This document shows, piece after piece, positions 14,801 to 42,404 of a stretch of DNA of 64,000 nt. The stretch's first letter is position 1. Each line of letters starts with the position of its first letter. The notes under the pieces are model-generated. The model had not been told where the DNA came from. It ran no database searches and saw only the letters and a program-made list of their open reading frames with translations. Location of the stretch: the NCBI GenBank assembly GCA_021463485.1, contig JAJTYJ010000002.1, positions 108,638-172,637 of the forward strand, given 5' to 3'. The DNA comes from a bacterium. Lineage in GTDB: Bacteria > Patescibacteriota > UBA1384 > 2-12-FULL-50-11. The position numbers were made by a program, and so were the translations under genes.

Positions 14801-17800
14801 ATAGATAGGTCGCTACCACTGGTTCTAAATAGCTCAAATTCGCAAGTTACAGAACAAGTCATAATCCCAGCATTAACGGTTAAGGTATTATAAACATCAG
14901 TTCGCGCAATTGTCATAGTTGTTGTTTGACTGGTCGAGGCAACACCAAGATTATGAAATTGAGTAAAGCCTCCTCCCGTTGATTTGATTTCACCTGTACC
15001 GGTAAGGTTAACTGTAGAGGCTCCCCGAGAAAAACTACTGGAATTACCCTTGTCCCAGTGTCGACCAACACTTATTGTTGAGCCATTTGCGGTAAAGGTT
15101 ACTGATGCGCTATTGGCTAAGGTAAAATCTCGCCCGACCGTGAGAGAATAGTTGGTTCCACTGGTGGAAAAGGTTCCCAAGCTGACAGTAAAATCGTTCT
15201 CTGTTTCAGTATTTGCTCCCAAAGTCCAGCCACCACCCGAACCGTTAAAAACTAAATGATTAAATTTGCCGGTTGAGCCGGATAGGGTGCCGCTGAGAGT
15301 CCTTCCGGTTGTGGTTGAGTTAAAGGTAGCTGTACTGGTGCCAGCGGTGAAAGTGCCGTCGTTCTGCCAGGAGCCGCTGACGTTGATAGCATTAGAATCG
15401 GCTATCCAAGTACCATCATTCTCGACGTGAACTGTAGTTACATCGGCTCCGCCGCCGGAGGCCGGGCGGAAAGTATTGCCGGTTACTATGTATAGCTCCT
15501 CGTCGGTATATGAGCCGAGCGAATCGACCGTTAAGTCGTCGCCGGCGGAGACATCGAAGAATATATCTTCATCGCTGGAAACGGAGTTGTCGTAAGAGCC
15601 AAGGTCAGTATTGCTCAACGTCTGGTTGTCGGCCGAACCAATCGTTAAATGGCGATGAAACAGAACCACGCCGGTAATATCACCGCTTCCGTCATATTTT
15701 GTGACGGCGACGGCCTCCTCGCTGTCGGTCGTTTCGCCGTTAATGAAAACTGTAATGATATCACCGCTATTGGGTTTATTAACACTAGAAATTTGCCAGG
15801 AACCATCGACGGTGGTGTCAACCTGCGCTTGGAGAGAGCCATTAACTGCAACAGCAATTTCATTAGCGCCGTCGTCGGTGCAGTCAGTAGTTTGATCGTA
15901 TTGGTCACAAGTACCGGAAATATTAATTGGAGGCGATACTGTGTAATCAATTAATAACCAAAGGGCTGTAACCCTAACGGTTCCACTTGAGCTAAGTACA
16001 TCTCGAACGCCAATTTGAGCAGAGTCTAATTGAGTATCAGTCCAAGCCGATGCCATTTCTGGCCTGGTGTAAGCGGTCAATGGATAAAGTTTTGGATCGG
16101 CGGTTCCATTAGTTGTCCAAGTAGTTGAGTCCGGTGAAAGGATAGTTGATTCAATAGCAATGCCCGACGACGATTCTTTCAGCCGGACTTTAAAGTCCTC
16201 CTGTGTGGCAGAACTTGTGCTAAATCTGACACCGACTGAAACTAAATTAACAGTATCGCTTGCCCCAATACTAGAATCAGTAATGTTGTATTCGTCGATA
16301 TCGTCGCTAGTTGTTTCCGATACGTAATTAGTGGCGTCATTGGGGGTTACCTCGTCAACACAAGCATAATTTCCGCCCGTACAGGTGCCGTTAGTTGTCC
16401 AGTTGGCAGCGGAACCGGCTGTGTTTGGCCGGAGATGAATAATTTTCCCGTCGCCTGGCCAAGTATTCTGATTTGTACCGATTCCCTTATTGACCGCAAT
16501 ATCATCCCAGATAAACCCTCCTTGATTGTTACTAACTTCTGAATTGTCACTTGCGTTGATCCCAATTCCCAAACGCGCAACCCCAGTTCCAATACTACGA
16601 GTTGTGGAGCTAGCAAAGGAAGTACCATCAATCCTTCCATCAACAATATGTGAACCCGACGAGCCAGTTGTATCTATCCGTAGTTCAATTCGGTACCAAG
16701 TGCCGGTTGATAGGGCCGATGAAGCCGAGCCAACCTGGCTATCTTCATCAAATAATTTCAGGGTATTGGACGAAGTGATTTTTATTGCTGCCCTTTGCAG
16801 GTTACTCGTATCCAAAAATGACATGATGGTGGCATCAAAAATATCCACAGCTGTAGATATCCGAAAGTAGGCACGACCATAGTAGTCCCCGTTCGTGTTG
16901 CTGGATTCAAAATAGTAGCGAACGTATTCCTGCCCGCCACCATTTTCAGTCTCAAGTGAGTATGCACCGGATCGAACTGTACTACTATTTATGGAGGGCG
17001 AGTTGGTAACGGCCGTTACTTCCACACCGGCAGTGGCCGAGTTGAGCTCTAACCCACTGGAGATTAATCTGCCACCGGTGAGAGAAACGTACTCTACTTG
17101 GAGCCAGATGGCCGTCATTTTAAAGCCGGTCCCGTTGGGATCATCGTTGCGAATACCAATTTGAGCAGAATCTAAATTGGTAGTAGTCCACTGGGTAGTG
17201 CTACTGCCCGGCAAGTCATAAATAGTAAGGGCGTTAAGACGAGCCGTATCGTCGTTGTTAGTCACATACCCGCCAATTAGATCATCAATTCCGGTGGAGG
17301 CACTCTCTTCAGTGGTACCGCTAGCGCTAGCTTTGATGCGAGTCTTGTAATTAACATCTCCATTGCCAATCGAGCAAGCCGGCTCTGGGATTACTGCTCC
17401 GCAGATTCCGAAACGAGCGCCGACAGAAACTAGTTTAATGTAATCCCCGGCAGAAATACCGGCGTTTGAGGACGACTCCAGGTTAACATCGTCAAGCTGG
17501 TTTTGGGTGGTACTGCGGATAAAGTCGGTGCTGTCGTTGGGGGTGACTTCATCGACGTCGTCGTAATCATTAGTATCACTGGGATAACCGCCCCAGGCGG
17601 TATTGTCTCCGTCGGCATCGGGTTGCATATGAACAATATTGCCTTCGCCCGGCCAGTTATCAGTTGAGCGGCCTGACGAATTGTTGACAGCAAGATCATC
17701 GAAAAATAAATCGGCCGTGGTCGAGTTTGCCACTCCCCATGTCCACCTATCCACGCCTGCTGCTAGATTCTCCGAAGACGATGTAGAGATTTGGGTACCG

Positions 17801-18423
17801 TCAAGCAACATCGTTGCAGTTGTCGTTGAAAGCGTAGTTGTATTAATATAGACCTCTAAGCGGTACCAGGTGTTTGTTGAAAGTGCTGAACTGGCGGAAC
17901 CAATGTTAGCATTATCCTCTTCATTTCTAAGCTGGAGAGTTGAGGAACTGCTCATGCGGACGCTGATTTTTCCGCTCGATCCATTACCAATTTGCATAAT
18001 ATAGGTGTCTGCACCAGGCGCGGTCGCAATTCTAATATATTGTCTAAACCAAAATTTGTTGCTTTGGGCGCTGTTAGCCCAAGTCTTGTAGATTGTTCCA
18101 GTTGAAGATGTGGGGTTTGCCCTAAATGCATAATCTCCGCTTCGCTTTGTTGAGCTAGAAACGGACACAGTTCCCGCTGATCCGGTAATCTCTACGTTGG
18201 CAGTAAGTGTGTTTAGTTCGGCGCCGCTCGACCAAAGCCGGGTAGCGCTAGCTGAACCAGCCTCACCGAGGATTGTTCGGGGAAAAACTCCATTAACAAT
18301 TAAACTGATGAGGAGCAAGAAAGTAATAGCTGCTGCACCCAAACGAGGCGCTTTTCTGACGATTTGGAGCCTGCGTAAATCCCGAAACAGGCCATCGAAG
18401 CGCTTTTTAGTTTTCCCCTCCAT
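11818..18423 (-). CDS. Giant (2201 aa) cell-surface protein: N-terminal signal anchor, two LamG/ConA-like jellyroll modules, long T/S/G/N-rich beta-repeat region, C-terminal domain shared with the three paralogs (…VLYIVTGTF)
   Basis: 6.6-kb uninterrupted ORF. There are internal duplicated modules (TWYRLEVYINTTT…FFDDLAVNN…NWPGEGNIVHMQP and TWYRIELRIDTTG…IWDDIAVNKG…TWPGDGKIIHLRP). The C-terminal ~170 aa match the paralog C-terminal domain (…ITHKVAVDALQAAKNYQTEVLYIVTGTF). Confidence 0.6.
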   Translation of the reverse strand: MEGKTKKRFDGLFRDLRRLQIVRKAPRLGAAAITFLLLISLIVNGVFPRTILGEAGSASATRLWSSGAELNTLTANVEITGSAGTVSVSSSTKRSGDYAFRANPTSSTGTIYKTWANSAQSNKFWFRQYIRIATAPGADTYIMQIGNGSSGKISVRMSSSSTLQLRNEEDNANIGSASSALSTNTWYRLEVYINTTTLSTTTATMLLDGTQISTSSSENLAAGVDRWTWGVANSTTADLFFDDLAVNNSSGRSTDNWPGEGNIVHMQPDADGDNTAWGGYPSDTNDYDDVDEVTPNDSTDFIRSTTQNQLDDVNLESSSNAGISAGDYIKLVSVGARFGICGAVIPEPACSIGNGDVNYKTRIKASASGTTEESASTGIDDLIGGYVTNNDDTARLNALTIYDLPGSSTTQWTTTNLDSAQIGIRNDDPNGTGFKMTAIWLQVEYVSLTGGRLISSGLELNSATAGVEVTAVTNSPSINSSTVRSGAYSLETENGGGQEYVRYYFESSNTNGDYYGRAYFRISTAVDIFDATIMSFLDTSNLQRAAIKITSSNTLKLFDEDSQVGSASSALSTGTWYRIELRIDTTGSSGSHIVDGRIDGTSFASSTTRSIGTGVARLGIGINASDNSEVSNNQGGFIWDDIAVNKGIGTNQNTWPGDGKIIHLRPNTAGSAANWTTNGTCTGGNYACVDEVTPNDATNYVSETTSDDIDEYNITDSSIGASDTVNLVSVGVRFSTSSATQEDFKVRLKESSSGIAIESTILSPDSTTWTTNGTADPKLYPLTAYTRPEMASAWTDTQLDSAQIGVRDVLSSSGTVRVTALWLLIDYTVSPPINISGTCDQYDQTTDCTDDGANEIAVAVNGSLQAQVDTTVDGSWQISSVNKPNSGDIITVFINGETTDSEEAVAVTKYDGSGDITGVVLFHRHLTIGSADNQTLSNTDLGSYDNSVSSDEDIFFDVSAGDDLTVDSLGSYTDEELYIVTGNTFRPASGGGADVTTVHVENDGTWIADSNAINVSGSWQNDGTFTAGTSTATFNSTTTGRTLSGTLSGSTGKFNHLVFNGSGGGWTLGANTETENDFTVSLGTFSTSGTNYSLTVGRDFTLANSASVTFTANGSTISVGRHWDKGNSSSFSRGASTVNLTGTGEIKSTGGGFTQFHNLGVASTSQTTTMTIARTDVYNTLTVNAGIMTCSVTCEFELFRTSGSDLSIDGSATLSGSNATFHLRKQSASTISIASGNYGTWNILLRADTASTVTFNLSGNVTTTGTVLVWAASGGAGSNFNTQNFNLTAKSFSTGHSSNTTAIASNFGSSTVTLENGTSNALFPVSNGGSHSLNLSSADINIKGNVRFVNGTGTFTVTEGTSTLTWTNTSGTVSYAPNGQSLYNMVLNAAGGTLTPTAAVDVNNNFTITNGVYDTVNGSNYSLTVDNNFTGTSGTWTFQARAATITVSGNWDTSAIGADDASFVRGTSTVVMNGTGTKTITTGSTNVWQHRFYNLTVGQSGNTTRMMQTFGVENQINLGTGTFDLNSRLLYNSGTNANFLNLNPSGTWGTGNGAYAPYGSNNKNIPAFTYNSGLQTEQNTGFKTIFQGNASFTSFLIGCCSRASEIDINGYTVTVTGNVTFGTTTAILTLGSGTLNVGGNWVNTNNAVLNANTGTVVLNGTSTQTLSGLMTGSSSFYNLTITNSSGTNASDCERTGFVAGIDFAASATVTNNTVFTTASSRIEFNSGSTYTLTNINWNGQAVGTRLYFRNSAVSGSWNLNVSGTQTAVSYVNVSRSNASSGNTIMANDGTNFDCGNNVNWNFSNPDAPSDLAQKKTNDTVIATGGWTNETSVKFTATASDTDSSDTLYLCVEKDLLGTGFSNTEDLCGTGVAYSGTPVTVTVTISGITDVSEYHWQARVKDQGGVYGSWVSYGGNAESARDFGVDTTACTYAGTIYDGLVEDVDAAFNDGSLEELTANWDAFSCGASGLLRYDVSIGTTAGGTDILTWTNNGTNEDTTQAGLSLHTNQRYYVNVRAIDNASNTSSVHSSNGQDVLPTISLTLGSTTVTFSNLNDGNNRTDSKTLNLTTSTNAYGGYVIRQYATGLLTNGSFTIPMFQGGTYASPGSWPGGFCTGGSNCGYGYTSNDTTIQGSNKFSSGTLYASFATAAFGDIVADHTDAVTGATGPVTNEVFTITHKVAVDALQAAKNYQTEVLYIVTGTF

Positions 18424-24676: not shown

Positions 24677-25056
24677 TACAGACGTACTTTGCTGCTTTAA
24701 CAAGCGGGACCTTTGTTTTACCTACCACGGGAACAAAGGAGCGTAATCGCGAACATTTCGCGGTTACAAGAACAAACCAGCCGATGGACTGGCAAATTTC
24801 CATCCCTTTCTCGGTAAAACGAGAGAGTGCCAAACAATTCCAAAAAAACAAAACAGTATGTCAGCTGAAATGATTTATCATTTCGCTCGTAAGGTTCAGT
24901 AGGCTTTTATGTGAGTTAAATCTCAAAGAGTTTGACGAAGACGGTTTCGGCCGTCGGACACAAATTTCTTACCAAAAGGTAAGAGTTTGATCTGAGCACA
25001 ATTCTTCTGAAGAGTGCGAAGACAAACTCTCATAAAAATCCCTACAGGAATTTTTA

Positions 25057-26505
<1,449 letters not shown>

Positions 26506-26596
26506 AGAGGAATCTAGATGTCGACTCCGATCTATATCGGAGAGATGCTACCAATATAGGTAGCGAAAACGTTCTTGTAACCGCAAAGTGTTTGAA

Positions 26597-26627
26597 AACA
26601 AAAAAGAGGCTAAAGCCTCTTTTTTGT
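26597..26627. terminator. Bidirectional intrinsic terminator between the convergent 16S and tRNA genes
   Basis: A-run, hairpin agaggc-taa-gcctct, T-run. Confidence 0.55.
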
Positions 26628-26637
26628 TGCATATTCG

Positions 26638-26836
26638 TGGGCGATACTGGACTCGAACCAGTGACCTCGTCATTATACGCTGAGCGAACCGTTCAAATTT
26701 TGTCTGTGCGCGTACCTGGACTCGAACCAGGGACCTCGTCATTATCAGTGACGCGCTCTAACCAGCTGAGCTATACGCGCAAGGACAAAATTTGAATGTA
26801 TCAGTGACGCGCTCTAACCAGCTGAGCTAATCGCCC
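26638..26836 (-). tRNA. Split/intron-containing tRNA-Ile(GAU)-like gene: 5' exon 26798-26836, 125-nt insertion 26673-26797 at position 37/38, 3' exon 26638-26672
   Basis: 5' part is GGGCGAT-T-AGCTCAGCTGGTTAGAGC-G-CGTCA-CTGATA. 3' part is A-TGACG-AGGTC-ACTGG-TTCGAGT-CCAGT-ATCGCCC-A. The acceptor pair (GGGCGAT/ATCGCCC) and the T-stem pair (ACTGG/CCAGT) are perfectly complementary to each other and differ from those of the nested gene. The insertion holds the complete tRNA-Ile above, bracketed by the inverted repeat TTCAAATTTTGTC / GACAAAATTTGAA. Confidence 0.5.
26707..26780 (-). tRNA. tRNA-Ile (anticodon GAU), complete 74 nt, nested inside the interruption of a second tRNA-Ile gene
   Basis: Minus-strand cloverleaf: acceptor GCGCGTA/TACGCGC, D-arm TAGCTCAGCTGGTTAGAGC, anticodon stem-loop CGTCA-CTGATAA-TGACG, T-arm CCTGG-TTCGAGT-CCAGG. 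No encoded CCA. Confidence 0.85.
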
Positions 26837-27001
26837 TCGTTTCACTCGGGCGTTGCTTCGCAATCGCCCAATGGGCCGTTACTTTCGTAATCGCCTAAAC
26901 TATTAACCTGCCTGCTGGTGGCAAGTTACCAAACAATTGTACCGAATAATTGTCGTTCTATCCAGGTTCAGTTGGGGTAAATAATATGGCATACTACCGA
27001 T

Positions 27002-27583
27002 ATGGTTGCCGAAGACGCCAAGAAAAAATTTTCACATAAACAGGCGCTACAGTTGGTCGGATTTATTCTGTTGTTTGGTCTTTTTGTTGGTGGAATCTCG
27101 GCAATTATGAATAAGTTTCTTGCGCCACACATCGAACCGTTAACCGATATTATTTCGTACCATCCGTTCCGAGCGTTGGCCGGATACTTTCTATTTGTCA
27201 TGATCGCCTCGGTGTTTGTACCGATTCCAACACTGCCGGTAGATTTGTTGTTTTTTGAATACGTTGACCCGACAAGCGTTATTGTCGCTCGAGTTCTCGG
27301 TGGGGTGGCTGGAGGGAGTATTAGCTATTATTTGGCCTATAACTACGGCCGACCGCTATTAAAGCGATGGCTATCGAGAAAAAATTACGATTTTGTCGAG
27401 GGTGTCTCGAACGCCGTGAGCTGGAAACAATTTTTCATTATCACTATGATTCCGATCATCAACGCAGAACTAATGGCGTTCGTTGGAGGTGTTGGGAAAA
27501 TTGGCTATCGAAAAACTATCGGAACGTTGCTACTTGCGATCGCGTACCGAGTCCTGTTCGTTTACGCTGTCATCCAACGTTAG
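27002..27583 (+). CDS. DedA/TVP38 (VTT-domain) family membrane protein
   Basis: 193 aa, multi-TM, with a conserved PIPTLPVDLL…G VTT-like core. Confidence 0.55.
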   Translation: MVAEDAKKKFSHKQALQLVGFILLFGLFVGGISAIMNKFLAPHIEPLTDIISYHPFRALAGYFLFVMIASVFVPIPTLPVDLLFFEYVDPTSVIVARVLGGVAGGSISYYLAYNYGRPLLKRWLSRKNYDFVEGVSNAVSWKQFFIITMIPIINAELMAFVGGVGKIGYRKTIGTLLLAIAYRVLFVYAVIQR

Positions 27584-28995
27584 CGGCGTTTAATAATAAT
27601 GGCGTTAGGCAGGCTCCGGCCCGGGCCAATTTTGTAACTACTATTAAACATCATCGCACTCGATCCGCCGCCGTCGACGTTGAGCGCGTAATCGACGTCG
27701 AGCGCGTCCATTACTGCGGACAAATCCGGAACTGTGGCGCTGGTTGCAATTACTAAGTAGAGCGTTTGGCCCTTTAGCCCGATCGCGCCTCGATTCGATT
27801 TTGTTGTGCGTTGCTTGTCATCGAGCGAGCCTTCGTCGAGAATATTATTGCCGTTACTAATTAATGCTGGTTTGCAGTTGATACCGGCGACTCCAGCAAA
27901 CCCCGAACCGGCGTAGCTGCTCCAGGATGAAAAATATCTAGCGGTACCGGCGGAGTTAAAAGCGATAAACGGGTCGTTTTCGCCTAAGCCGTTGTTAGCG
28001 TTAATCATTTTACTGAGACGAGTATTGAGCACTTTCCAGAAGAACGAGCCGACTTGGCCGGCGCACGCTGAGTAATCGGCGGGGCAAAAATAGGTACCGT
28101 TCATGCCGGCAAAGCCGCCGTTACCACTGACGTAACTACTTAAGCTTTTGGTCGGGCAGTTATCGGTGCAATCGTTGTCGTTAGCGGTATCGGTGCTAAC
28201 AGCAAACTGACCGCTAGCTAAGTTAAAGGTTGAGAGATGGATACTGAAGCTACCGCGACTGGTTGCGATCGATATTTTCTCATACTTACTGTCGCCGTTA
28301 GTGGTGGAGGTCGTGGTGGTCGTACTGGTTTTTGCTTGCGTCTTTGTAAGTGCCAAATTAAGCGTTGTTGTTTGCTGAGCTGTAATACTAACGCCGGTTT
28401 TTTTAACCGAATTGTAACCGCTCTTTGATGCTGTGAGTGTGTATGTCCCGGCCGTAATCGTAAAAGTATAAGCGCCGTCGGCGGCGCTTGTTGTGGTAGT
28501 CGTTGTTGTGCCGTCTGTAAGTGTTAGCGACACTCCTGAGAGAAGTTGTTCGCCTTCTTTCACTACACCAACAAGTATTCCGGATTGGCGCTGTAACTCA
28601 GCGACTCGATTTATCTCCGTTTGAGTGGCAATTAGTGTTTCAACCACGGCGACTTGATCGCGAATAGTGTTAAAATTTTCAATCGTTTTAGTCGGATCAG
28701 AAATCCGTGATTTAATTTCAACAATTACTTTCTCAAGCGCCGCGGTGTCAGCTCCGATTGCCTTAGCAGCGTCAACTTTTTCCTGAAGTGTCTTGATTGC
28801 GGCGACTAATTGTAATTGTGAGTTATGCTCCAGCTCAACAGCCAACTGCTGATCGAGGCGATCGCTTTGCTGTTTCTGCAGCACGCTCTGAGCTTGCAGC
28901 GAAGCGATAATTATCAGAAACGTTACGATCAGTGACAAGCCGCGCCACTTATGGCTATGAAGCTCGTTCGAAATTGGTTGGAATAACCGATGCAT
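27580..28995 (-). CDS. Membrane-anchored extracellular protein: coiled-coil, CarboxypepD_reg-like beta domain, C-terminal phosphodiester-glycosidase (DUF2233/NAGPA-like) domain
   Basis: N-terminal TM. The segment at ~40-130 is heptad-rich. The run TTTTTTTSAADGAYTFTITAGTYTLTASKSGYNSVKKTGV resembles a CarboxypepD_reg-like fold. Near the C-terminus, ALNVDGGGSSAMMF matches the DGGGSS hallmark of the phosphodiester glycosidase family. Confidence 0.45.
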   Translation of the reverse strand: MHRLFQPISNELHSHKWRGLSLIVTFLIIIASLQAQSVLQKQQSDRLDQQLAVELEHNSQLQLVAAIKTLQEKVDAAKAIGADTAALEKVIVEIKSRISDPTKTIENFNTIRDQVAVVETLIATQTEINRVAELQRQSGILVGVVKEGEQLLSGVSLTLTDGTTTTTTTSAADGAYTFTITAGTYTLTASKSGYNSVKKTGVSITAQQTTTLNLALTKTQAKTSTTTTTSTTNGDSKYEKISIATSRGSFSIHLSTFNLASGQFAVSTDTANDNDCTDNCPTKSLSSYVSGNGGFAGMNGTYFCPADYSACAGQVGSFFWKVLNTRLSKMINANNGLGENDPFIAFNSAGTARYFSSWSSYAGSGFAGVAGINCKPALISNGNNILDEGSLDDKQRTTKSNRGAIGLKGQTLYLVIATSATVPDLSAVMDALDVDYALNVDGGGSSAMMFNSSYKIGPGRSLPNAIIIKRR

Positions 28996-29038
28996 GATCG
29001 TATTGTAACCGAAACGATGCGTTGCTACGGTTGGTCTG

Positions 29039-29974
29039 ATGAATATTCAGGAGAACGTCTCACTTGCTAACTACACAACGTTTAAAGTGGGTGGTCCGGC
29101 AAGGTATTTCTGCAACGTCGAAACGATCGAAGAGTTGCGTATGGCGCGTGATTTTGCCAATTCTAAAAACTGCCCGATCTTTGTTCTTGGCGCCGGGAGT
29201 AACGTGATTGCCTCGACAGCTGGTTTCGATGGGCTTGTTATTCACATCGATTTCAACTCAATTGAAGTAGACGGCAGGGTTATCCGCGCTGGTTCTGGAA
29301 GCCAGATGTACGATTTAGTTGACACGGCAGTTACGGCTGGGTTAGTTGGCCTGGAATGGGCGGGAGGACTGCCCGGAACGTTTGGCGGAGCGATTCGCGG
29401 TAACGCCGGCGCATTTAAGGGTGAAATTAAGGATACTATCCAATTCGTAACAGCGTTCTCTACTGCAACTGGCGAGATAAAGATTTTCGATAACCCCACG
29501 TGCGAGTTTGAGTATCGGGAAAGTTACTTTAAACGTCATCCGGTATGGGTGATTCTTAACGCAGAGTTATTGTTGAGTTCTGGTAACACTGAACAACTAC
29601 GATCGATCGCTGACGAACATATCGAGTTTCGTAAAACCAGACACCCACTCGAATATCCTAACGCTGGGTCGATGTTTAAAAATGTTCCGATCCAGACGAT
29701 CCCAACAGCAACGATGGAATTATTCAAAGACTTTGTAAAAATCGATCCGTTTCCAGTAGTCCCGACGGGCAAGATTATTCAAGACGCGGGGCTGAAAGGC
29801 TACCAAGTTGGGGGAGCGCAAGTTTCAGAAAAACACTGTAATTACATCGTTAACCGCGGTAACGCCAGTGGAGAGGATATACACCAGTTGGTGCTTGAGA
29901 TTAAAAAACAAGTACACGATAAATTTGGGATAAAGCTCGAGACTGAGCCGGAATTTCTCGGGTTTGACACTTGA
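29039..29974 (+). CDS. murB: UDP-N-acetylenolpyruvoylglucosamine reductase
   Basis: FAD-binding PCMH domain (GAGSNV). Catalytic blocks GGAIRGNAGAFKGEI and NAGSMFKN are present. Length is 311 aa. Confidence 0.88.
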   Translation: MNIQENVSLANYTTFKVGGPARYFCNVETIEELRMARDFANSKNCPIFVLGAGSNVIASTAGFDGLVIHIDFNSIEVDGRVIRAGSGSQMYDLVDTAVTAGLVGLEWAGGLPGTFGGAIRGNAGAFKGEIKDTIQFVTAFSTATGEIKIFDNPTCEFEYRESYFKRHPVWVILNAELLLSSGNTEQLRSIADEHIEFRKTRHPLEYPNAGSMFKNVPIQTIPTATMELFKDFVKIDPFPVVPTGKIIQDAGLKGYQVGGAQVSEKHCNYIVNRGNASGEDIHQLVLEIKKQVHDKFGIKLETEPEFLGFDT

Positions 29975-30030
29975 TTCTTAGGTTTATCTGTGATAGTATT
30001 GCTCTCGTTTCGCACATCAAGGAAGAAAGT

Positions 30031-30495
30031 ATGAACACAGCATTTTTGCTTCTCGCGTTGCTTGGCGTTGGCCAACCCCAACCCGTCTCTGCGCCGGTTT
30101 ACCAGAAACGAATTCTGGTGATCCTCGACCTCCAGAAGGTCTACGCCTTTGAAGGCGACAAGCTTGTCTTCGAGTTAAAGTGTTCAACGGGCCGCAAGGG
30201 TCTTGAGACGCCGTTCTCCACAGGCGAGCCATACAAGATCACCGCGAAAATTCCGGTCGGCAAAGCCTTGCCGGAGCTCGGCGGCGCCACGCTGCACTGG
30301 CAGATGAGGGTGCCGATGTACGACCCTAAACAAAAACGGGTCCGTCGGATCGGCTTTCACGCCTATCACGACGTGCCGGACTTTCCGGCATCGAGCGGAT
30401 GCATCAGGCTCAAAAAGCCTGATGCAAAGAAGCTGTTTGATTGGGCAGAGGTCGGCGTACCCGTCTGGGTGCACGAGACAGTGCCCATCTGCTAA
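30031..30495 (+). CDS. L,D-transpeptidase (YkuD domain), secreted, GC-rich
   Basis: Start taken at MNTAFLLLALLG, with AGGAAG upstream. Catalytic signature FHAYHDVPDFPASSGCIRL (H…SxGC[IV]R). GC is clearly above the genome background. Confidence 0.75.
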   Translation: MNTAFLLLALLGVGQPQPVSAPVYQKRILVILDLQKVYAFEGDKLVFELKCSTGRKGLETPFSTGEPYKITAKIPVGKALPELGGATLHWQMRVPMYDPKQKRVRRIGFHAYHDVPDFPASSGCIRLKKPDAKKLFDWAEVGVPVWVHETVPIC

Positions 30496-30522
30496 CGCTT
30501 TCCGTCCTCCGTTCCACCTCCA

Positions 30523-30551
30523 CCCGGGCTTCGGCCCGGGCTTTTTTATTG
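30523..30551 (+). terminator. Rho-independent terminator
   Basis: cccgggcttcggcccggg hairpin plus TTTTTTATT. Confidence 0.65.
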
Positions 30552-30555
30552 CCAA

Positions 30556-31017
30556 TACTTGACGAGAGGGTGTATTATTTTCTCACGGTTCACGACATGA
30601 ACTGTGTTCTTTCGACTGTGTGGGAGTTGAGGGTATGATAGCGACTTTAACTGTTGCAGTGGCGATTCAGTTCGCCGTACCGGCAGCATTGCCGAATCTC
30701 ATCACTTCCGCACCTCGCCGAGTGATCGTAACCAGAAACAGTACGGAGGCTGTTCTACCAAGCGGCTCGAGTGCACTTTCGAGCGACCGGCGTCCACAAA
30801 ACGCCGCCGTTATCGGACCTCGCCGCCAGACCCGTGCTTTGACTACTCCCAGGACGAGACCGTCTCAGGGAAGAGTGATCACCTACGAGGTGCCCGGCAC
30901 TTGACGGTGCCCCCAGAAGTCCAGGAATGGGCACGCTGGGGGCACCCCTTCCAAAGCTTGAACCTCCTTGTGGAGCCGAGCTCCCCCCGAACCATCCGGT
31001 CTCGGGGGATTTTTTAT
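30556..31017 (+). other. GC-rich promoter-to-terminator unit of unknown function (candidate leader RNA, ncRNA, or 94-aa secreted peptide gene 30620-30904)
   Basis: TTGACG at 30559. A strong intrinsic terminator (ccccccgaaccatccggtctcggggg plus T-run) sits at 30983-31017, immediately before the start codon of the next gene. There is an internal perfect 11-bp inverted repeat, ggtgcccccag…ctgggggcacc (30906-30945). The best ORF has an RBS but encodes a low-complexity basic peptide. Confidence 0.3.
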
Positions 31018-31031
31018 AGTAAGATACGGAC

Positions 31032-31544
31032 ATGCTTACCGTTCCCCATGCGCTTACTGGTGTTGCAATCGGCGTACTAGTAAAAGACGCTACAGCTGCA
31101 CCGCTTGTTGCCTTTGGTCTGGGCTGGGCGTCGCATTATGTGCTCGATACAATCCCGCACTGGGAGCGTTTGTACCGACCGCACGACGAAATTAAATTTG
31201 ATACGGATCAATCGGCGCGCGATTGGCCAAAGCACATCTTTGTCCAAGCAGTCTTAGACGTACTGATAGCTACTGGGCTGATTTTGTGGATCTATCAAAG
31301 CAGAGCTGAAGTTGGGAGCGTGATGCTTTGGGGCGCGTTAGGTGCCGTGTTACCGGATTTGCTCGATAACGTGCCGTTTTGGAATAGAACGCTTCGCCGT
31401 TTACCGTTCTTCTCGCAAGAACAGAAATTTCACGACTCAATTCATATTAACGAAGAAACGCAGCGACAAGTGCCAAAAATCTTAGGGCTTCTAACGCAAG
31501 TAACCGTTGTTGCTATTAGTCTGTTTATTATTTTCGCCGCGTAA
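31032..31544 (+). CDS. Membrane-bound metal-dependent hydrolase-like protein (YdjM/DUF457-like), tentative
   Basis: 170 aa with 4 TM helices and a His-rich N-terminal block HYVLDTIPHWERLYRPHDE. Confidence 0.3.
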   Translation: MLTVPHALTGVAIGVLVKDATAAPLVAFGLGWASHYVLDTIPHWERLYRPHDEIKFDTDQSARDWPKHIFVQAVLDVLIATGLILWIYQSRAEVGSVMLWGALGAVLPDLLDNVPFWNRTLRRLPFFSQEQKFHDSIHINEETQRQVPKILGLLTQVTVVAISLFIIFAA

Positions 31545-31569
31545 TCGGTGCTTCTGCTAGACTTACGAT

Positions 31570-31770
31570 ATGGGGATAATTCTCAAAATAATTGTACTGA
31601 TTGTCGGGCTGGCAGCGGGAGTAGCGATGCTGACACATAGTTATCAGTTAACACATCTATTCGGTTATAACTCGCTCGCTGAACGCTACCTTGGTACGGA
31701 TGGAACATACTCGATGTGGAAGATCCTCGGCGCGCTGACGATCATCGGAGCCGTTTTATATGTTTTTTAG
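31570..31770 (+). CDS. Hypothetical small membrane protein
   Basis: 66 aa with two TM helices. The 3' end overlaps the next ORF. Confidence 0.3.
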   Translation: MGIILKIIVLIVGLAAGVAMLTHSYQLTHLFGYNSLAERYLGTDGTYSMWKILGALTIIGAVLYVF

Positions 31771-32122
31771 AAAAGTACTGACTTGGATAGTATTTGTAGC
31801 GTTCTTTACGTTCGTCTTATTGATGTTTGTGACTCCCATTTTCCCAATTTTTAGCTGGGCACTGCCGTTAACAGCTGGGGATGGACAGTACATTATTTTC
31901 TTCGTCCTTGTATTGTTAATCTCGTTGCTCTCGCTTGCTCAAAAAATTGATTTTTGGCACGAAGCAAAGACCCCAAAGATTTGGGACGGTACAGAGGTTC
32001 CAAACAGCGCTAAGCCTATGATGTCCAAAATAATTTCGGCTGCAATTTGGTACAACATTGGTGTATCGGTGCTTTTTATACTAATCGCCATTGTTGGATT
32101 AGGTATCGTAATTACTCGATAA
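31760..32122 (+). CDS. Hypothetical membrane protein
   Basis: 120 aa with 3 TM helices. Confidence 0.3.
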   Translation: MFFRKVLTWIVFVAFFTFVLLMFVTPIFPIFSWALPLTAGDGQYIIFFVLVLLISLLSLAQKIDFWHEAKTPKIWDGTEVPNSAKPMMSKIISAAIWYNIGVSVLFILIAIVGLGIVITR

Positions 32123-32157
32123 TCTCCTTCGGATTAGATATAATACATAAGACTTTT

Positions 32158-32219
32158 GGGCCGTTAGCTCATCGCGAGCATAAGCGAGCGAGAGTAACGG
32201 CCCGAGTGCTAGCTCGGGA
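32158..32219 (+). repeat. Hairpin pair carrying a 15-nt duplicate of the tRNA-Ala 5' end (GGGCCGTTAGCTCAT)
   Basis: GGGCCGTTA…TAACGGCCC forms a 9-bp stem (32158-32204). It is followed by the palindrome cccgagtgctagctcggg. The first 15 nt are identical to nt 1-15 of tRNA-Ala, which lies 116 nt downstream. Confidence 0.4.
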
Positions 32220-32273
32220 GTTAGCTCATATTGAAACTTTATGTTGAGATAGGGCAAGGCACGAACGAAGTAA

Positions 32274-32346
32274 GGGCCGTTAGCTCATTTGGTAGAGCGC
32301 CGCATTTGCACTGCGGAGGTGTGGGGTTCGAATCCCCAACGGTCCA
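32274..32346 (+). tRNA. tRNA-Ala (anticodon UGC)
   Basis: Cloverleaf: acceptor GGGCCGT/ACGGTCC with the G3:U70 Ala identity pair, anticodon loop TTTGCAC, T-arm TGGGG-TTCGAAT-CCCCA. 73 nt, no encoded CCA. Confidence 0.9.
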
Positions 32347-32354
32347 CAACAAAA

Positions 32355-32382
32355 TTAAAGAAAAGCCCCTTGCGGGGCGGAT
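32355..32382 (-). terminator. Rho-independent terminator for the minus-strand dcd-like gene
   Basis: On the minus strand, gccccgcaaggggc is followed by TTTTCTTT. Confidence 0.55.
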
Positions 32383-32383
32383 G

Positions 32384-33388
32384 TTATGACTCCCATGGTC
32401 GGAACTGCTTGGCAAGCGTAATGCCTTGCTGCCCTTGGTAGTGTGACTTACTGCGATTTGCAGAGTTCTCGCCGTAAACTTGGTCTGGTACGTCATCGAG
32501 GCGTTCGAAACGCAGGATACTTATGCGTCGTCCATTCGCCAGCTGTGCGGCACCAGCACCAACGTTGGTGATCTCACAGACTATTGTTGAGCCGTTGAGC
32601 TCGCCATGTCGTCCGTGCCCGAAGCCAGGATCTATGAAGCCGGCATCGTGATAGCGGATTTCGCCATGAGCGGGATTGAACGGCATCATTTCAGCGCAGT
32701 AGCCCGGTGGAATCCGAACGTGTTCACGCGTTCTTGCCAATGCGAATTGCCTTGGTTCGAGATGGATAATGCCGCGGGCATCAAGTCCCTTGTCGTAAAA
32801 GTATTGTCCCGGATACTGAGAACGTCTTTCCCAAAGGGGGAGAGTTCTGCGAGTGTCGTGAGCGACCAAGATCGCCGGTTCTCCGGTCAAATCCAAATGG
32901 AGCATCATTCCCTCGTCGCAGAAAACCGGCTCGCAGTCAGTATTTCCGATTAGAGGCGACTGTCTATGAAGGTGTTCAAGCTCCCAACCCTGGAGAAATC
33001 GTCGCTTGCCACTGACAATCCTCAGTTGAGCCAGCGTCTCCGTTTGGCGGATATTGACCGGGAAAATGCGCGGCGTAATAAGCAAGTACAACTTGCCTCT
33101 ATAGCCGGCTGGAACTGCGTCAAATTCCTTACCGTTCTCGCAGATGAGCTTGCAGTGGATCGCGTTGCGGCCCGTTGAACTTTTCGGATTGGCGAAAGCT
33201 GAAAGCGTCGAAGGCAGGTGGCACTCCATATCTAGTTGCGCTAGGTATGTCTGGCCTGGTGAAAGCGTCAGCGACTTCCCATCGAAGTTGTTGAGATCAA
33301 ACTTCGTTTGTTGGTAATGCTTGATGAAGAACTTTTCGATAGTGACGTTTGCACTGAGGTCTGGTTCTCCGGCGACTAGACGGATCAC
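32384..33388 (-). CDS. dCTP deaminase/dUTPase-superfamily protein, long (334 aa) form, GC-rich
   Basis: The C-terminal block YHDAGFIDPGFGHGRHGELNGSTIVCEITNVGAGAAQLANGRRISILRF matches the Dcd/dUTPase beta-barrel motif (GxIDPGF…E…N…QL). GC is high. Confidence 0.5.
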   Translation of the reverse strand: MIRLVAGEPDLSANVTIEKFFIKHYQQTKFDLNNFDGKSLTLSPGQTYLAQLDMECHLPSTLSAFANPKSSTGRNAIHCKLICENGKEFDAVPAGYRGKLYLLITPRIFPVNIRQTETLAQLRIVSGKRRFLQGWELEHLHRQSPLIGNTDCEPVFCDEGMMLHLDLTGEPAILVAHDTRRTLPLWERRSQYPGQYFYDKGLDARGIIHLEPRQFALARTREHVRIPPGYCAEMMPFNPAHGEIRYHDAGFIDPGFGHGRHGELNGSTIVCEITNVGAGAAQLANGRRISILRFERLDDVPDQVYGENSANRSKSHYQGQQGITLAKQFRPWES

Positions 33389-33574
33389 GTTCGTGATCGG
33401 CAGATCGATTGATGCGGCCTGGATGTATTGGGGGCGACAACCAAAGACGGTCGGCTGCCCTCGGTAAGACTACGAATTTGTTTGTCGACTAAGACTCCCA
33501 TAGTTGCTCCTGATTGTGATGTGCGACTGCACTGCCGACAGTATATCCGTTAGTGGCTGAATATCAATGAGTAT

Positions 33575-33603
33575 AAAAGAAACCGCCCTTACGGGCGGTG
33601 GGT
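33575..33603 (-). terminator. Rho-independent terminator (minus strand)
   Basis: ccgcccgtaagggcgg hairpin followed by TTTCTTTT on the minus strand. Confidence 0.55.
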
Positions 33604-34038
33604 CTGGTCTGGCACGTTTGTGAGATCTTGAATCTCACGGACGTACCAGAGATGGTCGTCGTTGGGAGGCTTGACCTCCGATGCCGCGTAAACGAGGCGG
33701 TAGTCGTTCAGCATTGCTCTGATCTCGGCCTGCTCGCTGAAGCTAATTTCGCGACAGCCCGAACTTAAGATTGAGTAGAGCCTTGTCAGCTGCGCGTCAA
33801 TCAGTTTCAGGAAATTGAAGAGGATGACCACGTCTTGGCCTCTTAACCCCTTGCCTCGCTGTTCGAGCTCGGTGCGCATATTGATGAGCGCGTGGCAGGC
33901 GCCGCACAGGTGTTGCCCGAGTTTGTCAGTTCGAGTCAGTTCACGCACGAGGACGTCGCCGTGATTAGTTGAATCCGCCGCTTGTTGGGGCACTGCGGCG
34001 AACAAGTTCTGAATGAATCGCCAGATGGAAAGGAACAT
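33589..34038 (-). CDS. Hypothetical protein (GC-rich island)
   Basis: 149-aa ORF with high GC. I recognise no family. Confidence 0.35.
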   Translation of the reverse strand: MFLSIWRFIQNLFAAVPQQAADSTNHGDVLVRELTRTDKLGQHLCGACHALINMRTELEQRGKGLRGQDVVILFNFLKLIDAQLTRLYSILSSGCREISFSEQAEIRAMLNDYRLVYAASEVKPPNDDHLWYVREIQDLTNVPDQTHRP

Positions 34039-34170
34039 TTTTCACCTCACGCCGAACCGTTGTGCATAGTTTACCTAATTTTAGTTGGTATGTCACCGGT
34101 TTTACACTAAATACTCTGGATTTTCTTATTAGTTCTCGCTAGAATGCCCTAGCACATTAATAGGAGTGGA

Positions 34171-35007
34171 ATGAACAGTCTCACGCTAACGCATTCAGTA
34201 ACCATCAAGGGTCGAAACTTATTTGGCCTGCCGTCAAGCATTACCTTTCATCCGGGACCGCTCGATAACCCGGGTTGGTATTGGCTAGATCGCGGTCGAC
34301 TTGTACCGATCACTAGCGTCATGGCAACGACGAAAAAACGCCGGATCGTGTTGGAGATGAGCTTCACCAAGCAGCTCCAAGTGTTCGAGCATATCGGATT
34401 TCTGCGCTGGATGGGGTTTAGTAACCTCGTGATTGAAGCCAATGGTTGGCCGCCGTTTTGCGGCGGGGCGCTGTTCTACTACGAACGTCTGCGAGGAGTA
34501 GCGGTTGTAAGATCCGAGAAAGTCTCGCACCGCACGGTTACCGGTCTTTGTGACTGGATTTACCCTCAAAAAAGGCAAGAGCGATGGGGGGTCGAGATCT
34601 GGCCCGGGAATAGCCCGACGCTGCAGATCAACATCGAGTGCGACTTTCCTGGGGAACTCGGCAAGTTCAGTAAAGAGCTCTCACTGCCAAACGACGATTT
34701 ACTAATGGAAATCCTTCAGGCGAACACTGTCGGGTTACCCCACTGGCTCTACTGGCCAGCACGAGCTCTGCTGCCAAGAAAGTCTCGATCAATCGGCTGG
34801 GTTAAACAACTCGGCGTTGAGCAATTCCGAGAACGAATGCTGCTGCATCGAGCGCAAGATCTGCTAGGTGCACTGAGTTTTCTCTGCGACGGCAACCATC
34901 TATTCGCCGGTAGCGTTAAATCTCGGTGCGCTGGTCATGAGGCAGATATCTACGCTGTTCGCGACGCTTCGACGAAGCTCCGTTCGCTTTCCGTTCAGTT
35001 GCGCTAG
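34171..35007 (+). CDS. LpxC-family (UDP-3-O-acyl-GlcNAc deacetylase-like) zinc amidase, GC-rich
   Basis: It aligns block by block with LpxC. The N-terminal stretch TLTHSVTIKGRNLFGLPSSITFHPGPLDNPGWYWLDRGRL corresponds to LpxC TLKRIVQATGVGLHTG…RRTDL. VFEHIGFL…NLVIEANG…PPFCGG covers the EH and DGSA blocks. LLHRAQDLLGAL corresponds to HKMLDAIGDL (the HxxxD zinc site). CAGHEAD carries the second His. GGAGTGG lies upstream of the ATG. Confidence 0.6.
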   Translation: MNSLTLTHSVTIKGRNLFGLPSSITFHPGPLDNPGWYWLDRGRLVPITSVMATTKKRRIVLEMSFTKQLQVFEHIGFLRWMGFSNLVIEANGWPPFCGGALFYYERLRGVAVVRSEKVSHRTVTGLCDWIYPQKRQERWGVEIWPGNSPTLQINIECDFPGELGKFSKELSLPNDDLLMEILQANTVGLPHWLYWPARALLPRKSRSIGWVKQLGVEQFRERMLLHRAQDLLGALSFLCDGNHLFAGSVKSRCAGHEADIYAVRDASTKLRSLSVQLR

Positions 35008-35014
35008 GCACCGC

Positions 35015-35878
35015 CTAGCGCTTTTTTTGACAGTCTGGGCAAAAATGACTTGATCGGCCGGCGATTTTAATCCGTTCGATCGGTGTACCACAGACGGTGC
35101 AAGGCATCCCTTCTCTTTTATAAACGTTGGCGACGGCTAGATAGGTTCCCATTCTGCCGTCCGCTTGTCGGTAGCTCTGGCTGCTGGTACCGCCGTGCTT
35201 TAAGGCTTTATTAAGTACTGTTGGGATATTTTTGAAAATTGTTTGGATTTCGTTCGGTTCTAATTCATTTACTCTAGTTTGAGGATGAATTCTCGATAAA
35301 AATAGCGTTTCGTCGGCGTATATATTTCCGATCCCAGCCACAATTGTTTGATCTAGGAGTAATTGTTTGACGGTAATTGTTTTTTTACGAGCCAGTTTTT
35401 TCGTAAAATACTCAAGTGAAAATTCAGGCCAGTCGTATTCTGGTCCTAGCGTATGAACGTGCGGCTCAATTTGTTCGGCAGAATCCACCACTTTAATCCA
35501 ACCGAACTTGCGAAGATCGTTGAAATAAAGTTTACCGTGATCTAACTCAAAAATTACATGAGTGTGTTTATGTGGTAGAGAAAACGAGTACGCCGGGTCT
35601 GGGTGACCGCCGACTACCATATCTTGTTCGGTTGCGCCATTGGGAACAAATATCAGCTGTCCAGTCATTTTTAAATGTATAAGCAAGAAACTGCGTTCAA
35701 GTTTGATAATTAATATTTTGGCCCGTCGAGCGATTTCGACAACTGCTTGGTTGGTAATAGTTTCGGGATTGCCAAAGAACAGTTTTTTACCCCGAACATC
35801 GACCGAACGAATTCGATGTCCAACCAACATTTTTTCTAATCCGACCCGGATGGTTTCAACCTCTGGTAGTTCTGGCAT
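35015..35878 (-). CDS. fpg: Formamidopyrimidine-DNA glycosylase
   Basis: N-terminal MPELPEVE with catalytic Pro2, an H2TH region, and a C-terminal zinc finger CTVCGTPIERIKIAGRSSHFCPDCQ. The true start is taken at the second Met. Confidence 0.9.
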   Translation of the reverse strand: MPELPEVETIRVGLEKMLVGHRIRSVDVRGKKLFFGNPETITNQAVVEIARRAKILIIKLERSFLLIHLKMTGQLIFVPNGATEQDMVVGGHPDPAYSFSLPHKHTHVIFELDHGKLYFNDLRKFGWIKVVDSAEQIEPHVHTLGPEYDWPEFSLEYFTKKLARKKTITVKQLLLDQTIVAGIGNIYADETLFLSRIHPQTRVNELEPNEIQTIFKNIPTVLNKALKHGGTSSQSYRQADGRMGTYLAVANVYKREGMPCTVCGTPIERIKIAGRSSHFCPDCQKKR

Positions 35879-35960
35879 TTGAGGGGATTGTGGCAAAAAC
35901 GAGGGTAAAAAAATAGGGCGGCTCCGCAGTTGTCTGCGTGCCGCCCGGTGAGCCGAAGCT

Positions 35961-37136: not shown

Positions 37137-37263
37137 GTTCAGGTTCGATCCTCCCGATGGTTCGGGTAACTCCGTTGAGTCGCGAGGAATAGTACCTGAA
37201 ACTACTTAAAAAGTCAATCAGTTAGGACGATATTTTACGTGTAAAAAAATACCCCCGAAGGGG

Positions 37264-38088: not shown

Positions 38089-38168
38089 ACTGTCACCTCG
38101 CCCAATTGGGCGTTGCTCTATTCAAGCATTCTTGAACAAAACGAGCAAATACTTCTATATAGAACGAT

Positions 38169-38604: not shown

Positions 38605-38889
38605 TTACAGCTACCGTTCCTAACGCAGAGTCTTGACGCAATATGCGCAAATATGGGACAATCACCAGGTACATGTTAGGAAAAACACAAGGAGGCGTCG
38701 GTTTATAAGAGACCACTATTTTGGGGTCACCTTAGAAGCCGCTCGCCAAAGCGGTTTTTTCTTACCTCTGATGAATACTTAACAACTAGGTTTCCAAGCT
38801 GAAGTCGAAGACAATTCGACGACAGCACAACTTCAGATATGGTTCCATAATCATATTTGAAGCAAGTAACAGCAACGCGAAAGCGTTAG

Positions 38890-41838
<2,949 letters not shown>

Positions 41839-42391: not shown

Positions 42392-42404
42392 ATAAAGAGT
42401 TTAA

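Follow-up and report, generated by a model that had tools for sequence, protein, structure and literature searches.

A tRNA-Ile(GAU) gene nested inside another in a Patescibacteriota bacterium: a probable self-targeting replacement cassette

Introduction

In a 64,000-nucleotide stretch of the Patescibacteriota contig JAJTYJ010000002.1 (assembly GCA_021463485.1; hereafter the window) a tRNA-Ile(GAU) gene is interrupted in its anticodon-loop DNA by 125 nt, and these hold a second, complete tRNA-Ile(GAU) gene between inverted repeats. We consider it probable that the locus is a DNA insertion allele and not an intron, namely a self-targeting tRNA-Ile replacement cassette with a working inner gene and outer halves that are a relic. 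The cassette would belong to a family of such elements in bacteria of the Candidate Phyla Radiation (CPR) that seems not to have been described before. The searchable literature yielded no bacterial case of one tRNA gene lying within another, which is not proof of absence.

The insertion is polymorphic, with an exact empty site, and cassettes of this kind are bounded by a 2-3-bp target duplication, are co-oriented with the gene that they interrupt and include homologous members with compensated arms. They have entered serially within one species and recur in deep lineages, their cargo would restore the function of the interrupted gene, and the interrupted shells decay.

Structure of the interrupted tRNA-Ile locus

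Direct reading of the minus strand (26836..26638) gives a 38-nt 5′ part of a tRNA-Ile(GAU) gene, the 125-nt insertion and a 36-nt 3′ part (Table 1). An initial annotation, made from this sequence, had rightly described one tRNA-Ile(GAU) gene inside a 125-nt insertion of another, but it placed the split at 39/35; the split is 38/36 and is ambiguous over 3 nt, as the 5′ part and the insertion both end in ATA and so form a 3-bp direct repeat. When joined, the outer halves make a 74-nt tRNA-Ile(GAU) that ARAGORN accepts, in agreement with that annotation, and the acceptor stem of this outer tRNA reads GGGCGAU.../...AUCGCCCA as RNA. The inner tRNA, which is also 74 nt long and has no encoded CCA, shows a cloverleaf, the GAU anticodon, A73 and every stem paired (ARAGORN; Rfam, 73.6 bits), and is presumed to be the working gene. 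Given the uncut locus, ARAGORN and Rfam report the inner tRNA alone and do not call the outer one. The intron mode of ARAGORN again returned only the inner gene.

Inner and outer tRNA differ at 8 positions, all of them in compensated pairs (2:71, 6:67, 7:66 and 49:65); the compensation in the acceptor stem and T-stem had been noticed at the outset. The tRNA accounts for 74 nt of the insertion and non-tRNA sequence for 51 nt: the 18-nt left flank of the inner tRNA is CATTCAAATTTTGTC-CTT and the 33-nt right flank is CA-GACAAAATTTGAACG-GTTCGCTCAGCGT-ATA. The inverted repeat around the inner tRNA is perfect over the 13 bp originally described, reaches 15 bp with one A.C mismatch, and comes to 23 nt if the acceptor stem is included.

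Approximately 100 nt upstream of the outer tRNA lies a promoter-like site, recognised by its consensus match alone, which is presumed to be the start of the precursor transcript. The leader that follows it (26837-26935) differs in the sister loci L002 and L003. Its hairpins open by repeating the 5′ end of the tRNA, GGCGATTAC... and GGGCGATTGC...CGCCC (GGCGATTACGAAAGTAACGGCCC, GGGCGATTGCGAAGCAACGCCC); they may be left over from earlier rearrangements, or may form a structure for regulation or processing. A AACGGCCCGAGTG motif, like these hairpins, also lies upstream of tRNA-Ala (32195-32210).

Alleles within one species

Sister loci were contigs that encode a protein identical to a neighbour of the locus in the window, including GCA_016861245.1 and many metagenomes. 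They comprise four alleles of the tRNA-Ile locus in one species, with 16S rRNA 99.6-99.9% identical and flanking DNA 95-97.5% identical. In L002 (GCA_016861245.1), L006 and L008 the tRNA-Ile gene is uninterrupted and is identical at 74/74 positions to the joined outer halves of the window. Because these sister strains carry the exact empty site, the insertion in the window is a recent presence/absence polymorphism. The initial annotation had held that compensated pairing in both copies argues against a decaying pseudogene. This does not follow: the perfect outer halves are identical to the intact allele, and therefore reflect too little time to decay and not selection.

A homologous but clearly different cassette is found in L003, L004 and L005, three independent assemblies of the same species. 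It aligns with the cassette of the window without gaps, yet the flanks are only 74.5% identical (13/51 differ) against a background divergence of ~5%, and 4/15 arm pairs and one acceptor pair are changed on both sides, with the helix kept. The 3′ shell of L003 is not the resident 3′ half; it consists of the inner 3′ half of the window type, with two substitutions, and then of the 8 nt (CAGACAAA) with which the right flank in the window begins. The simplest history would be that an allele of the window type took a second, related cassette into its inner tRNA, and that the nest was afterwards trimmed when its repeated 5′ halves recombined and a deletion occurred downstream. As a separate observation, ~360 nt of unique, GC-richer DNA lie between this nest and the 16S downstream spacer (L003 4530-4890; also L004 and L005), with no open reading frame (ORF) and no Rfam match; they are not present in the window, L001 or L002.

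In L001 and L007 the tRNA-Ile gene stands on the 16S strand, in entirely different intergenic DNA, and is again nested. Here the arms are unrelated (TTTAACATCTGGGG/CCCGGGATGTTAAA), the inner tRNA is identical to the outer one, and the junctions read CTGATA/...ATA/ATGACG. The entire 16S-to-VTT intergenic region is replaced in L001 (9333-10000), with the nest co-oriented with 16S; after the nest there are another tRNA 3′-end relic (TTCGAGTATCGCCCA) and a possible 35-codon membrane-peptide ORF.

It is barely credible that the nest is an assembly artefact joining reads of two tRNA-Ile variants. Inner and outer tRNA do share a 31-nt exact repeat, and the short-read contig L009 ends at ...CACTGAT, the end of that repeat. 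L009 is of the same strain, its sample having also yielded L035, another contig of the window strain, and its break point fits the nested allele. However, both flanks, of 18 nt and 33 nt, are unique sequence and pair as a coherent inverted repeat, the homologous compensated cassette was assembled independently in L003-L005, and for these reasons the locus is neither chance nor an assembly chimera. Further nests were assembled in L001 and ~15 other contigs, and artefact-like matches are limited to L011 (Pseudomonas, N gap) and L029 (tandem). The comparison of orthologous loci thus disclosed uninterrupted and differently nested alleles; the ordinary tandem pair and the assembly chimera that the initial annotation had named as possible outcomes were not seen. 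Contigs reached by way of the NUDIX gene, in a search for further alleles, end short of the 16S.

Recurrence across CPR lineages

We scanned for a degenerate pattern in which a tRNA-Ile 5′ half ending in CTGATA is followed within 21-51 nt by a second tRNA-Ile 5′ half. Among 185,579 species genomes it matched three times: the Pseudomonas scaffold artefact with its N gap (L011), a Paceibacterota metagenome-assembled genome (MAG; L012) and a Saccharibacteria MAG (L013). The same pattern matched 18 contigs in the JGI metagenomes, 16 of them relevant after removal of the tandem L029 and one duplicate of L012, and had zero matches in IMG/VR. The 16S sequences on nest contigs are 71-80% identical to that of the window and to each other, and therefore at least seven deep CPR lineages are involved. 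The nests lie mostly directly downstream of 16S.

Two classes can be told apart. Class A, with ~15 loci (window, L001, L003-5, L012, L013, L014/19/27, L015, L018, L020, L023, L024, L026, L028, L030 and L031), has the layout left arm, tRNA-Ile(GAU), right arm, second small palindrome, 3′ half. In class B (L016, L021, L022 and L025) the outer 5′ part extends to positions 38-48, the outer gene is incomplete and its 5′ part is the same as the inner copy; we read these loci as older or rearranged nests.

Class A insertions start after CTGATA and end with ATA before ATG... (GTA in L012, ATG in L030). The duplication of ATA, or at least of TA, is present in the window, L001, L003, L015, L018, L020, L024, L026, L027, L028 and L031, and has one changed base in L012 and L030. 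In L020, L024, L026, L027, L028 and L031 the sequence parses exactly as CTG-ATA-(arm-tRNA-arm)-ATA-(palindrome)-ATA-ATG, that is, as what would be two adjacent insertions, each duplicating the triplet. The anticodon-loop site and the orientation are the same across cassettes. Several cassette families have unrelated arms (CATTCAAA, TTTAACA, TCAGC, TAACAAG and GCGGAG), all with the same short duplication. One family, and the small palindromes, end in ...CTGA beside the duplication; the native target is CTGA-TA, and these ends may explain the choice of site.

In the Paceibacterota MAG (L012 665-1650 and 5780-5830) a short palindrome, TTCTGCGATAGCAGAA or TTCTGCTATCGCAGAA, also occurs several times, in some cases flanked by TA; these copies may represent terminators or a small hairpin element that is repeated.

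An origin without any mobile element has to be weighed at this point, in which the host tRNA-Ile gene was rearranged locally by template switching or fold-back synthesis and the inner copy later diverged in its acceptor stem. We judge this to be distinctly unlikely. It would agree with the near-perfect Watson-Crick arms, which would fit copying synthesis, with the identity of the inner and outer bodies in the window apart from four compensated pairs, and with the exact equality of inner copy and outer part in L001, L016, L021, L022 and L025. On the other hand, in L013/L018, L015, L020, L027 and L030 inner tRNA and shell differ, fully compensated, in both the D loop and the anticodon stem, and were therefore two distinct functional tRNAs. 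Homologous cassettes also stand on different host tRNA backgrounds, the arms are not copied from the leader of the resident gene, and the flanks of the L003 cassette are five times more diverged than the genome background.

Multiple nesting and the state of the outer shells

At every class A locus the innermost tRNA is intact and is the sole one that ARAGORN and Rfam report. The first shell around it is fully intact and uninterrupted in the window, L001, L020, L028 and L030; it has one mismatch in L027 and two in L012 and L015, is chimeric in L003-5, L026 and L031 (5′ and 3′ halves of different tRNAs), lacks its 3′ half in L013, and bears extra structured insertions in the V loop (L024, L031), the T loop (L018, L023) or the D arm (L023). 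Taken together, 9 of the ~15 loci have an outer shell that is chimeric, mismatched, truncated or interrupted further, and inner tRNAs are all intact; the shell defects would be the pattern expected of relics.

Three layers are present in L026, L027 and L028, where an intact inner tRNA-Ile lies in a middle tRNA-Ile shell and this in an outermost shell that is not tRNA-Ile. The outermost shell, GGGTCCGTGGCTCAGTGGTAGAGTGTCACACTGA/.../AAATGTGAAGGTCGGAGGTTCGATCCCTCCCGGACCCA, folds as a tRNA-Phe(GAA)-like gene, with an anticodon arm one base different from that of the local tRNA-Ile. It is split after A35, 1-2 bases off the Ile site, by a cassette with the arms AAAATATTTCG/CGAAATATTT. Its 3′ half is absent in L026. 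In L027 it has a T-arm hairpin insertion and acceptor mismatches as well as a D-loop hairpin insertion, which differs from that in L019; the 16S of L014 is 99.8% identical to that of L027. Should the Phe-like shell be the sole tRNA-Phe gene of its genome, it would need repair at the RNA level.

The extra hairpins of the shells always stand in loop-coding DNA, that is, in the T loop (L018, L023), the variable loop (L024, L031) or the D loop (L019, L027), and show compensatory changes between related loci (CATTAATTGCC.GGCAATTAATG in L024 vs CGTAAATTGCT.AGCAATTTACG in L031). They could represent a small palindromic element that targets loops, or else hint at constraint at the RNA level.

Event at the DNA or the RNA level

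Reduced folds of 14 junctions contain a conserved three-way junction, formed by the anticodon stem, helix P1 with the inner tRNA, and hairpin P2. A bulge-helix-bulge (BHB), which would show 3-nt bulges separated by 4 bp, is absent from the folds. The 5′ junction lies within P1, in most cases by 3 bp, and the single-stranded linker after P2 holds the 3′ junction. Summed fold energies of the arms and P2 are -495 kcal/mol for the sense and -503 kcal/mol for the antisense strand, and G.U pairs are few on either strand (20 sense vs 16 antisense). The folding models thus give no sign of selection specifically on the transcript, and the arms appear to be Watson-Crick DNA palindromes. Rfam detected only tRNA and rRNA, and in the flanks no ribozyme or other known RNA family, at the gathering threshold and at E<=10. 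A short duplication is the mark of a staggered DNA cut and is not made by reverse splicing or homologous exchange. We place the event at the DNA level because of the duplication at the junctions, the lack of any sign of selection on the transcript, and the lack of a BHB or ribozyme.

These results bear on the view that the outer tRNA is functional, in which the 125 nt would be an RNA intervening sequence: RNase P and RNase Z would free the inner tRNA, the arms would hold the halves together, and an endonuclease and a ligase such as RtcB would rejoin them, unless the gene is a split tRNA. We regard it as very unlikely. Its merits are the position in the canonical 37/38 region, the three-way junction conserved in most copies, the five intact outer shells, a precursor fold with z = -5.65, and the extra shell insertions in loops, which resemble those of multi-intron archaeal tRNAs. 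Besides the features of folds, strands and junctions given above, it has against it that many shells are unable to fold, their halves being chimeric, mismatched or missing, that a complete tRNA with the same anticodon is always present and makes the outer one redundant, that an empty-site allele exists in the same species, and that neither EndA nor RtcB was found among the 30 window ORFs scanned against Pfam. The initial annotation had left two options, of which a recent duplication-insertion is upheld by the empty-site allele (L002, L006, L008) and the 3-bp duplication; splicing by way of RNase P/Z is not, given the missing BHB and ribozyme, the lack of strand bias and the decayed shells.

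Three more specific RNA-level candidates were rejected. A group I intron lacks support, as covariance models find no catalytic core P3-P9 and the 51 non-tRNA nt compare with ~200 nt or more needed. For a spliced or split tRNA of archaeal or eukaryal type, the BHB or relaxed hBH/HBh' motif is absent and the outer exons are decayed. A hammerhead-like reading of CUGAUA and the three-way junction has no GAAA linker, and the motif is partly paired. Separately, a phage tRNA gene with an apparent ~60-nt intervening sequence in its anticodon loop was seen on a 490-kb viral contig (L040 7100-7270; IMGVR_UViG_2974583807_000001).

Search for mobility machinery

Several observations weigh against a self-targeting cassette. 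No transposase, integrase or endonuclease gene, homing endonucleases included, was found among the 30 window ORFs, the precomputed Pfam domains near the locus on sister contigs, or 7 ORFs beside other copies. The cassette arms are single-copy, without a second copy in the 64-kb window or the sister loci, and in this are unlike classical miniature inverted-repeat transposable elements (MITEs). Arm sequences have little in common from one cassette family to another, which makes a single dedicated enzyme hard to picture, and the whole unit in the window does not finish on the right with an inverted copy of its left end. The body of the inner tRNA in the window is identical to that of the host, which could mean local origin or gene conversion instead of import. 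Finally, the five outer shells listed above as fully intact are as a functional outer tRNA would be.

An all-vs-all comparison of the ORFs around 16 loci returned only syntenic housekeeping or membrane proteins, a multi-copy test of TA-flanked palindromes and arms in the window gave no further arm copies, nested and cassette-arm patterns in IMG/VR yielded nothing relevant, and blastn against phage and plasmid collections matched single tRNAs and no vehicle. The short target duplication expected of a MITE is present, as ATA/TA, at both junctions of the anticodon-loop cassettes. The arms begin directly after it in L020, L024, L026-28 and L031; in the window and L003 a 13-nt hairpin stands between the right arm and the duplication.

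Two other parses were considered and rejected. An IS200/IS605-style parse, with insertion 3′ of CTGATA and CTGATA as the right end, leaves two unexplained bases, whereas the ATA/TA parse fits every junction. An element of a tyrosine or serine integrase is at odds with the lack of an ORF in the 125 nt and with a nested architecture that is not attL/attR.

The absence of a mobility gene near any copy examined is what a passive allele would predict, that is, one or a few insertions that spread when DNA is taken up and recombines homologously at the conserved tRNA halves (and, within a species, at wider flanks), with no dedicated machinery and with nests arising by recombination into the inner copy. 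The constant site and orientation, the single-copy arms, the RecO, RecJ, RadA-like and pilin-like proteins encoded in the window, and the chimeric shells of L003, L026 and L031, which show recombination between copies, all agree with this. It is nevertheless unlikely in our view, though it may hold for transfers within a species. Families with unrelated arms and the same duplication point to several independent insertions, one cassette sits in the tRNA-Phe(GAA)-like gene 1-2 bases from the Ile site, homology arms of 36-38 bp would recombine poorly across 16S identities of 71-80%, and three or four events in one species amount to a high rate.

Proposed mechanism and implications

We therefore return to the replacement cassette as the preferred reading. 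The resident tRNA-Ile(GAU) of a CPR bacterium resembling Saccharibacteria would be cut in its anticodon-loop DNA, presumably by a trans-acting, transposase-like enzyme making a 2-3-nt staggered cut, and would receive there a 122-bp cassette, the triplet ATA (positions 35-37) being duplicated meanwhile. The cassette would consist of 15-bp inverted repeats around a second complete tRNA-Ile(GAU), together with a small 3′ hairpin. The whole unit would be transcribed from the old promoter to the old terminator; ordinary end processing (RNase P, 3′ trimming and CCA addition) would free the inner tRNA as the working tRNA-Ile of the cell, and the outer halves would turn into leader and trailer, a fresh relic. 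As each cassette delivers a new copy of its own target, later cassettes could enter the inner gene, giving Russian-doll nests with decaying outer shells. The co-orientation may reflect selection for expression, if only co-oriented inserts survive since the cargo needs the host promoter. The inverted repeat may serve the chemistry of insertion, or may insulate the folding and processing of the inner tRNA among near-identical halves.

More tentatively, and with considerable doubt, we suggest that these loci may represent an undescribed class of minimal selfish element: a ~120-bp 'carry-your-own-target' cassette that would home, by a dedicated and site-specific mechanism, into the anticodon-loop DNA of an essential single-copy tRNA gene, escape lethality by bringing a replacement tRNA, and so produce serial replacement and nests across CPR bacteria, the anticodon arm of a related tRNA-Phe-like gene being hit as well. 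If this is true, a reduced genome can have its one copy of an essential tRNA gene replaced again and again, by horizontal transfer, and yet never lose the gene, by means of the smallest conceivable 'addictive' mobile cassette, in which the cargo is the target; it would also explain odd tRNA half-fragments around CPR rRNA operons. The insertion activity would be a very site-specific DNA insertion system. The nests provide a natural set of tRNA-Ile variants whose acceptor and anticodon stems have been swapped, of use in studying identity rules, and the fact that tRNA finders report the inner gene alone calls for caution in annotation.

Comparison with known systems

The closest kind of known system is the tRNA-targeting integrative elements, either islands of P4-type tyrosine integrases at the anticodon-loop sublocation or archaeal elements of the pNOB8/SSV type; an element at a Caldiarchaeum tRNA-Thr is a population-level case (PMC3293823). 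Like the cassette, they insert inside tRNA genes, often in anticodon-loop DNA, supply tRNA sequence, leave fragments and are polymorphic in populations. However, they are kilobases long, encode a recombinase, carry a partial tRNA and are bounded by attL/attR direct repeats, whereas the cassette is 122 bp long, has the tRNA as its sole gene, carries this tRNA whole, is nested and makes a 3-bp duplication.

Bacterial MITEs include the Correia elements (Neisseria) and RUP (Streptococcus pneumoniae), with duplication of TA and mobilisation of the IS630 type. MITEs share with the cassette a size of ~100-150 bp, inverted-repeat arms, a 2-3-bp duplication containing TA, the lack of a transposase of their own and side-by-side small palindromes. 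They are, however, multi-copy, dispersed and geneless; the cassette is single-copy in 64 kb, site- and orientation-specific and carries a tRNA gene predicted to be functional, and the unit in the window is without inverted repeats at its extreme ends. The intervening sequences of bacterial rRNA are removed by RNase III without ligation. They too form a helix, interrupt a loop in the gene of a structured RNA that belongs to the rRNA operon, and are distributed sporadically, but they leave a working, fragmented rRNA, whereas the cargo of the cassette replaces the interrupted gene.

Archaea possess BHB tRNA introns, split tRNAs and mobile tRNA introns (Nanoarchaeum; Thermoproteales) (PMC4033280; PMC4390854). 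The likeness lies in an interruption at or near 37/38, a flank helix joining the halves, multiple interruptions of D, V and T loops in some shells, and signs of movement between genes; the differences are the bacterial host, the lack of a BHB, the whole tRNA inside, the DNA target duplication and the decay of the outer genes. Group I introns in the anticodon loops of bacterial tRNAs, including those of Patescibacteria, are the known tRNA intron type of the phylum (PMC13011429). They occupy the same tRNA loop, but are ribozymes of ~200 nt or longer that covariance models detect, and their core is absent from the cassette.

Genomic surroundings

The rRNA operon is dispersed over 25052-42392 of the window (Rfam), with tRNA-Ile on the strand opposite to 16S. 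Protein genes fill ~5.4 kb between tRNA-Ile and tRNA-Ala (a VTT-domain protein, an NAGPA-domain protein, MurB, YkuD and others) and a further 6.5 kb between tRNA-Ala and 23S-5S (dCTP deaminase, Fpg, dUTPase and others). On sister contigs the precomputed Pfam domains of the ORFs adjoining the locus are VTT, NAGPA, MurB, YkuD and Fpg. In the Pfam scan the 30 window ORFs were housekeeping or without a match, and include aminoacyl-tRNA synthetases, glycolysis, the mur/dcw cluster, RecO, RecJ and RadA-like; a pilin-like protein is also encoded in the window.

Table 1. Features of the nested locus, its surroundings in the window and the Phe-like outermost shell
Feature	Position	Strand	Sequence or basis
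16S rRNA	25052-26503	+	Rfam
Bidirectional terminator between convergent 16S rRNA and tRNA-Ile transcripts	26597..26628		Perfect 15-bp hairpin, A/T runs on both sides
Outer tRNA-Ile(GAU) 3′ part, positions 38-73	26638..26673	-	ATGACGAGGTCACTGGTTCGAGTCCAGTATCGCCCA, 36 nt
Inserted sequence	26674..26798	-	125 nt
Right copy of duplicated triplet ATA	26674..26676	-	Sequence
Short 3′ hairpin of cassette (P2)	26677..26689	-	GTTCGCTCAGCGT; counterpart of larger P2 palindromes in other cassettes
Right inverted-repeat arm of cassette (P1 3′ arm)	26690..26704	-	GACAAAATTTGAACG
Inner complete tRNA-Ile(GAU)	26707..26780	-	Acceptor GCGCGTA/TACGCGC; ARAGORN; Rfam 73.6 bits
Left inverted-repeat arm of cassette (P1 5′ arm)	26784..26798	-	CATTCAAATTTTGTC
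Left copy of duplicated triplet ATA (anticodon-loop positions 35-37)	26799..26801	-	Sequence
Outer (resident) tRNA-Ile(GAU) 5′ part, positions 1-37	26799..26836	-	GGGCGATTAGCTCAGCTGGTTAGAGCGCGTCACTGATA, 38 nt, CTGATA at end
Leader region	26837..26935	-	Two hairpins; strongly variable between strains
Candidate sigma-70-like promoter upstream of outer tRNA	26936..26964	-	TGGATA-17-TACAAT, 9/12 consensus matches
tRNA-Ala	32274	+	Rfam
23S-5S rRNA	38898-42392	+	Rfam
tRNA-Phe(GAA)-like outermost shell	L026 ~2085-2140; L028 ~688-1022; L027 2627-3075	- in L026, L028	Sequence

Two observations concern other parts of the window. Directly downstream of tRNA-Ala, positions 32350-34100 are a strain-variable island when compared with L001-L010. 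It holds a dCTP deaminase (DCD) gene in the window, L007 and L008; in L001-L006 and L010 it holds dCMP deaminase, dihydrofolate reductase (DHFR) and thymidylate synthase, with or without a His_Phos_1 phosphatase and a CTP-transferase-like gene, so that alternative gene sets for dTMP synthesis are exchanged beside a tRNA gene. Elsewhere, an ORF of 2201 aa (11818-18423, minus strand) lies beside several ORFs of 320-370 aa without a Pfam match, and this group may encode surface or adhesion proteins of a kind that is typical of CPR bacteria living as episymbionts.

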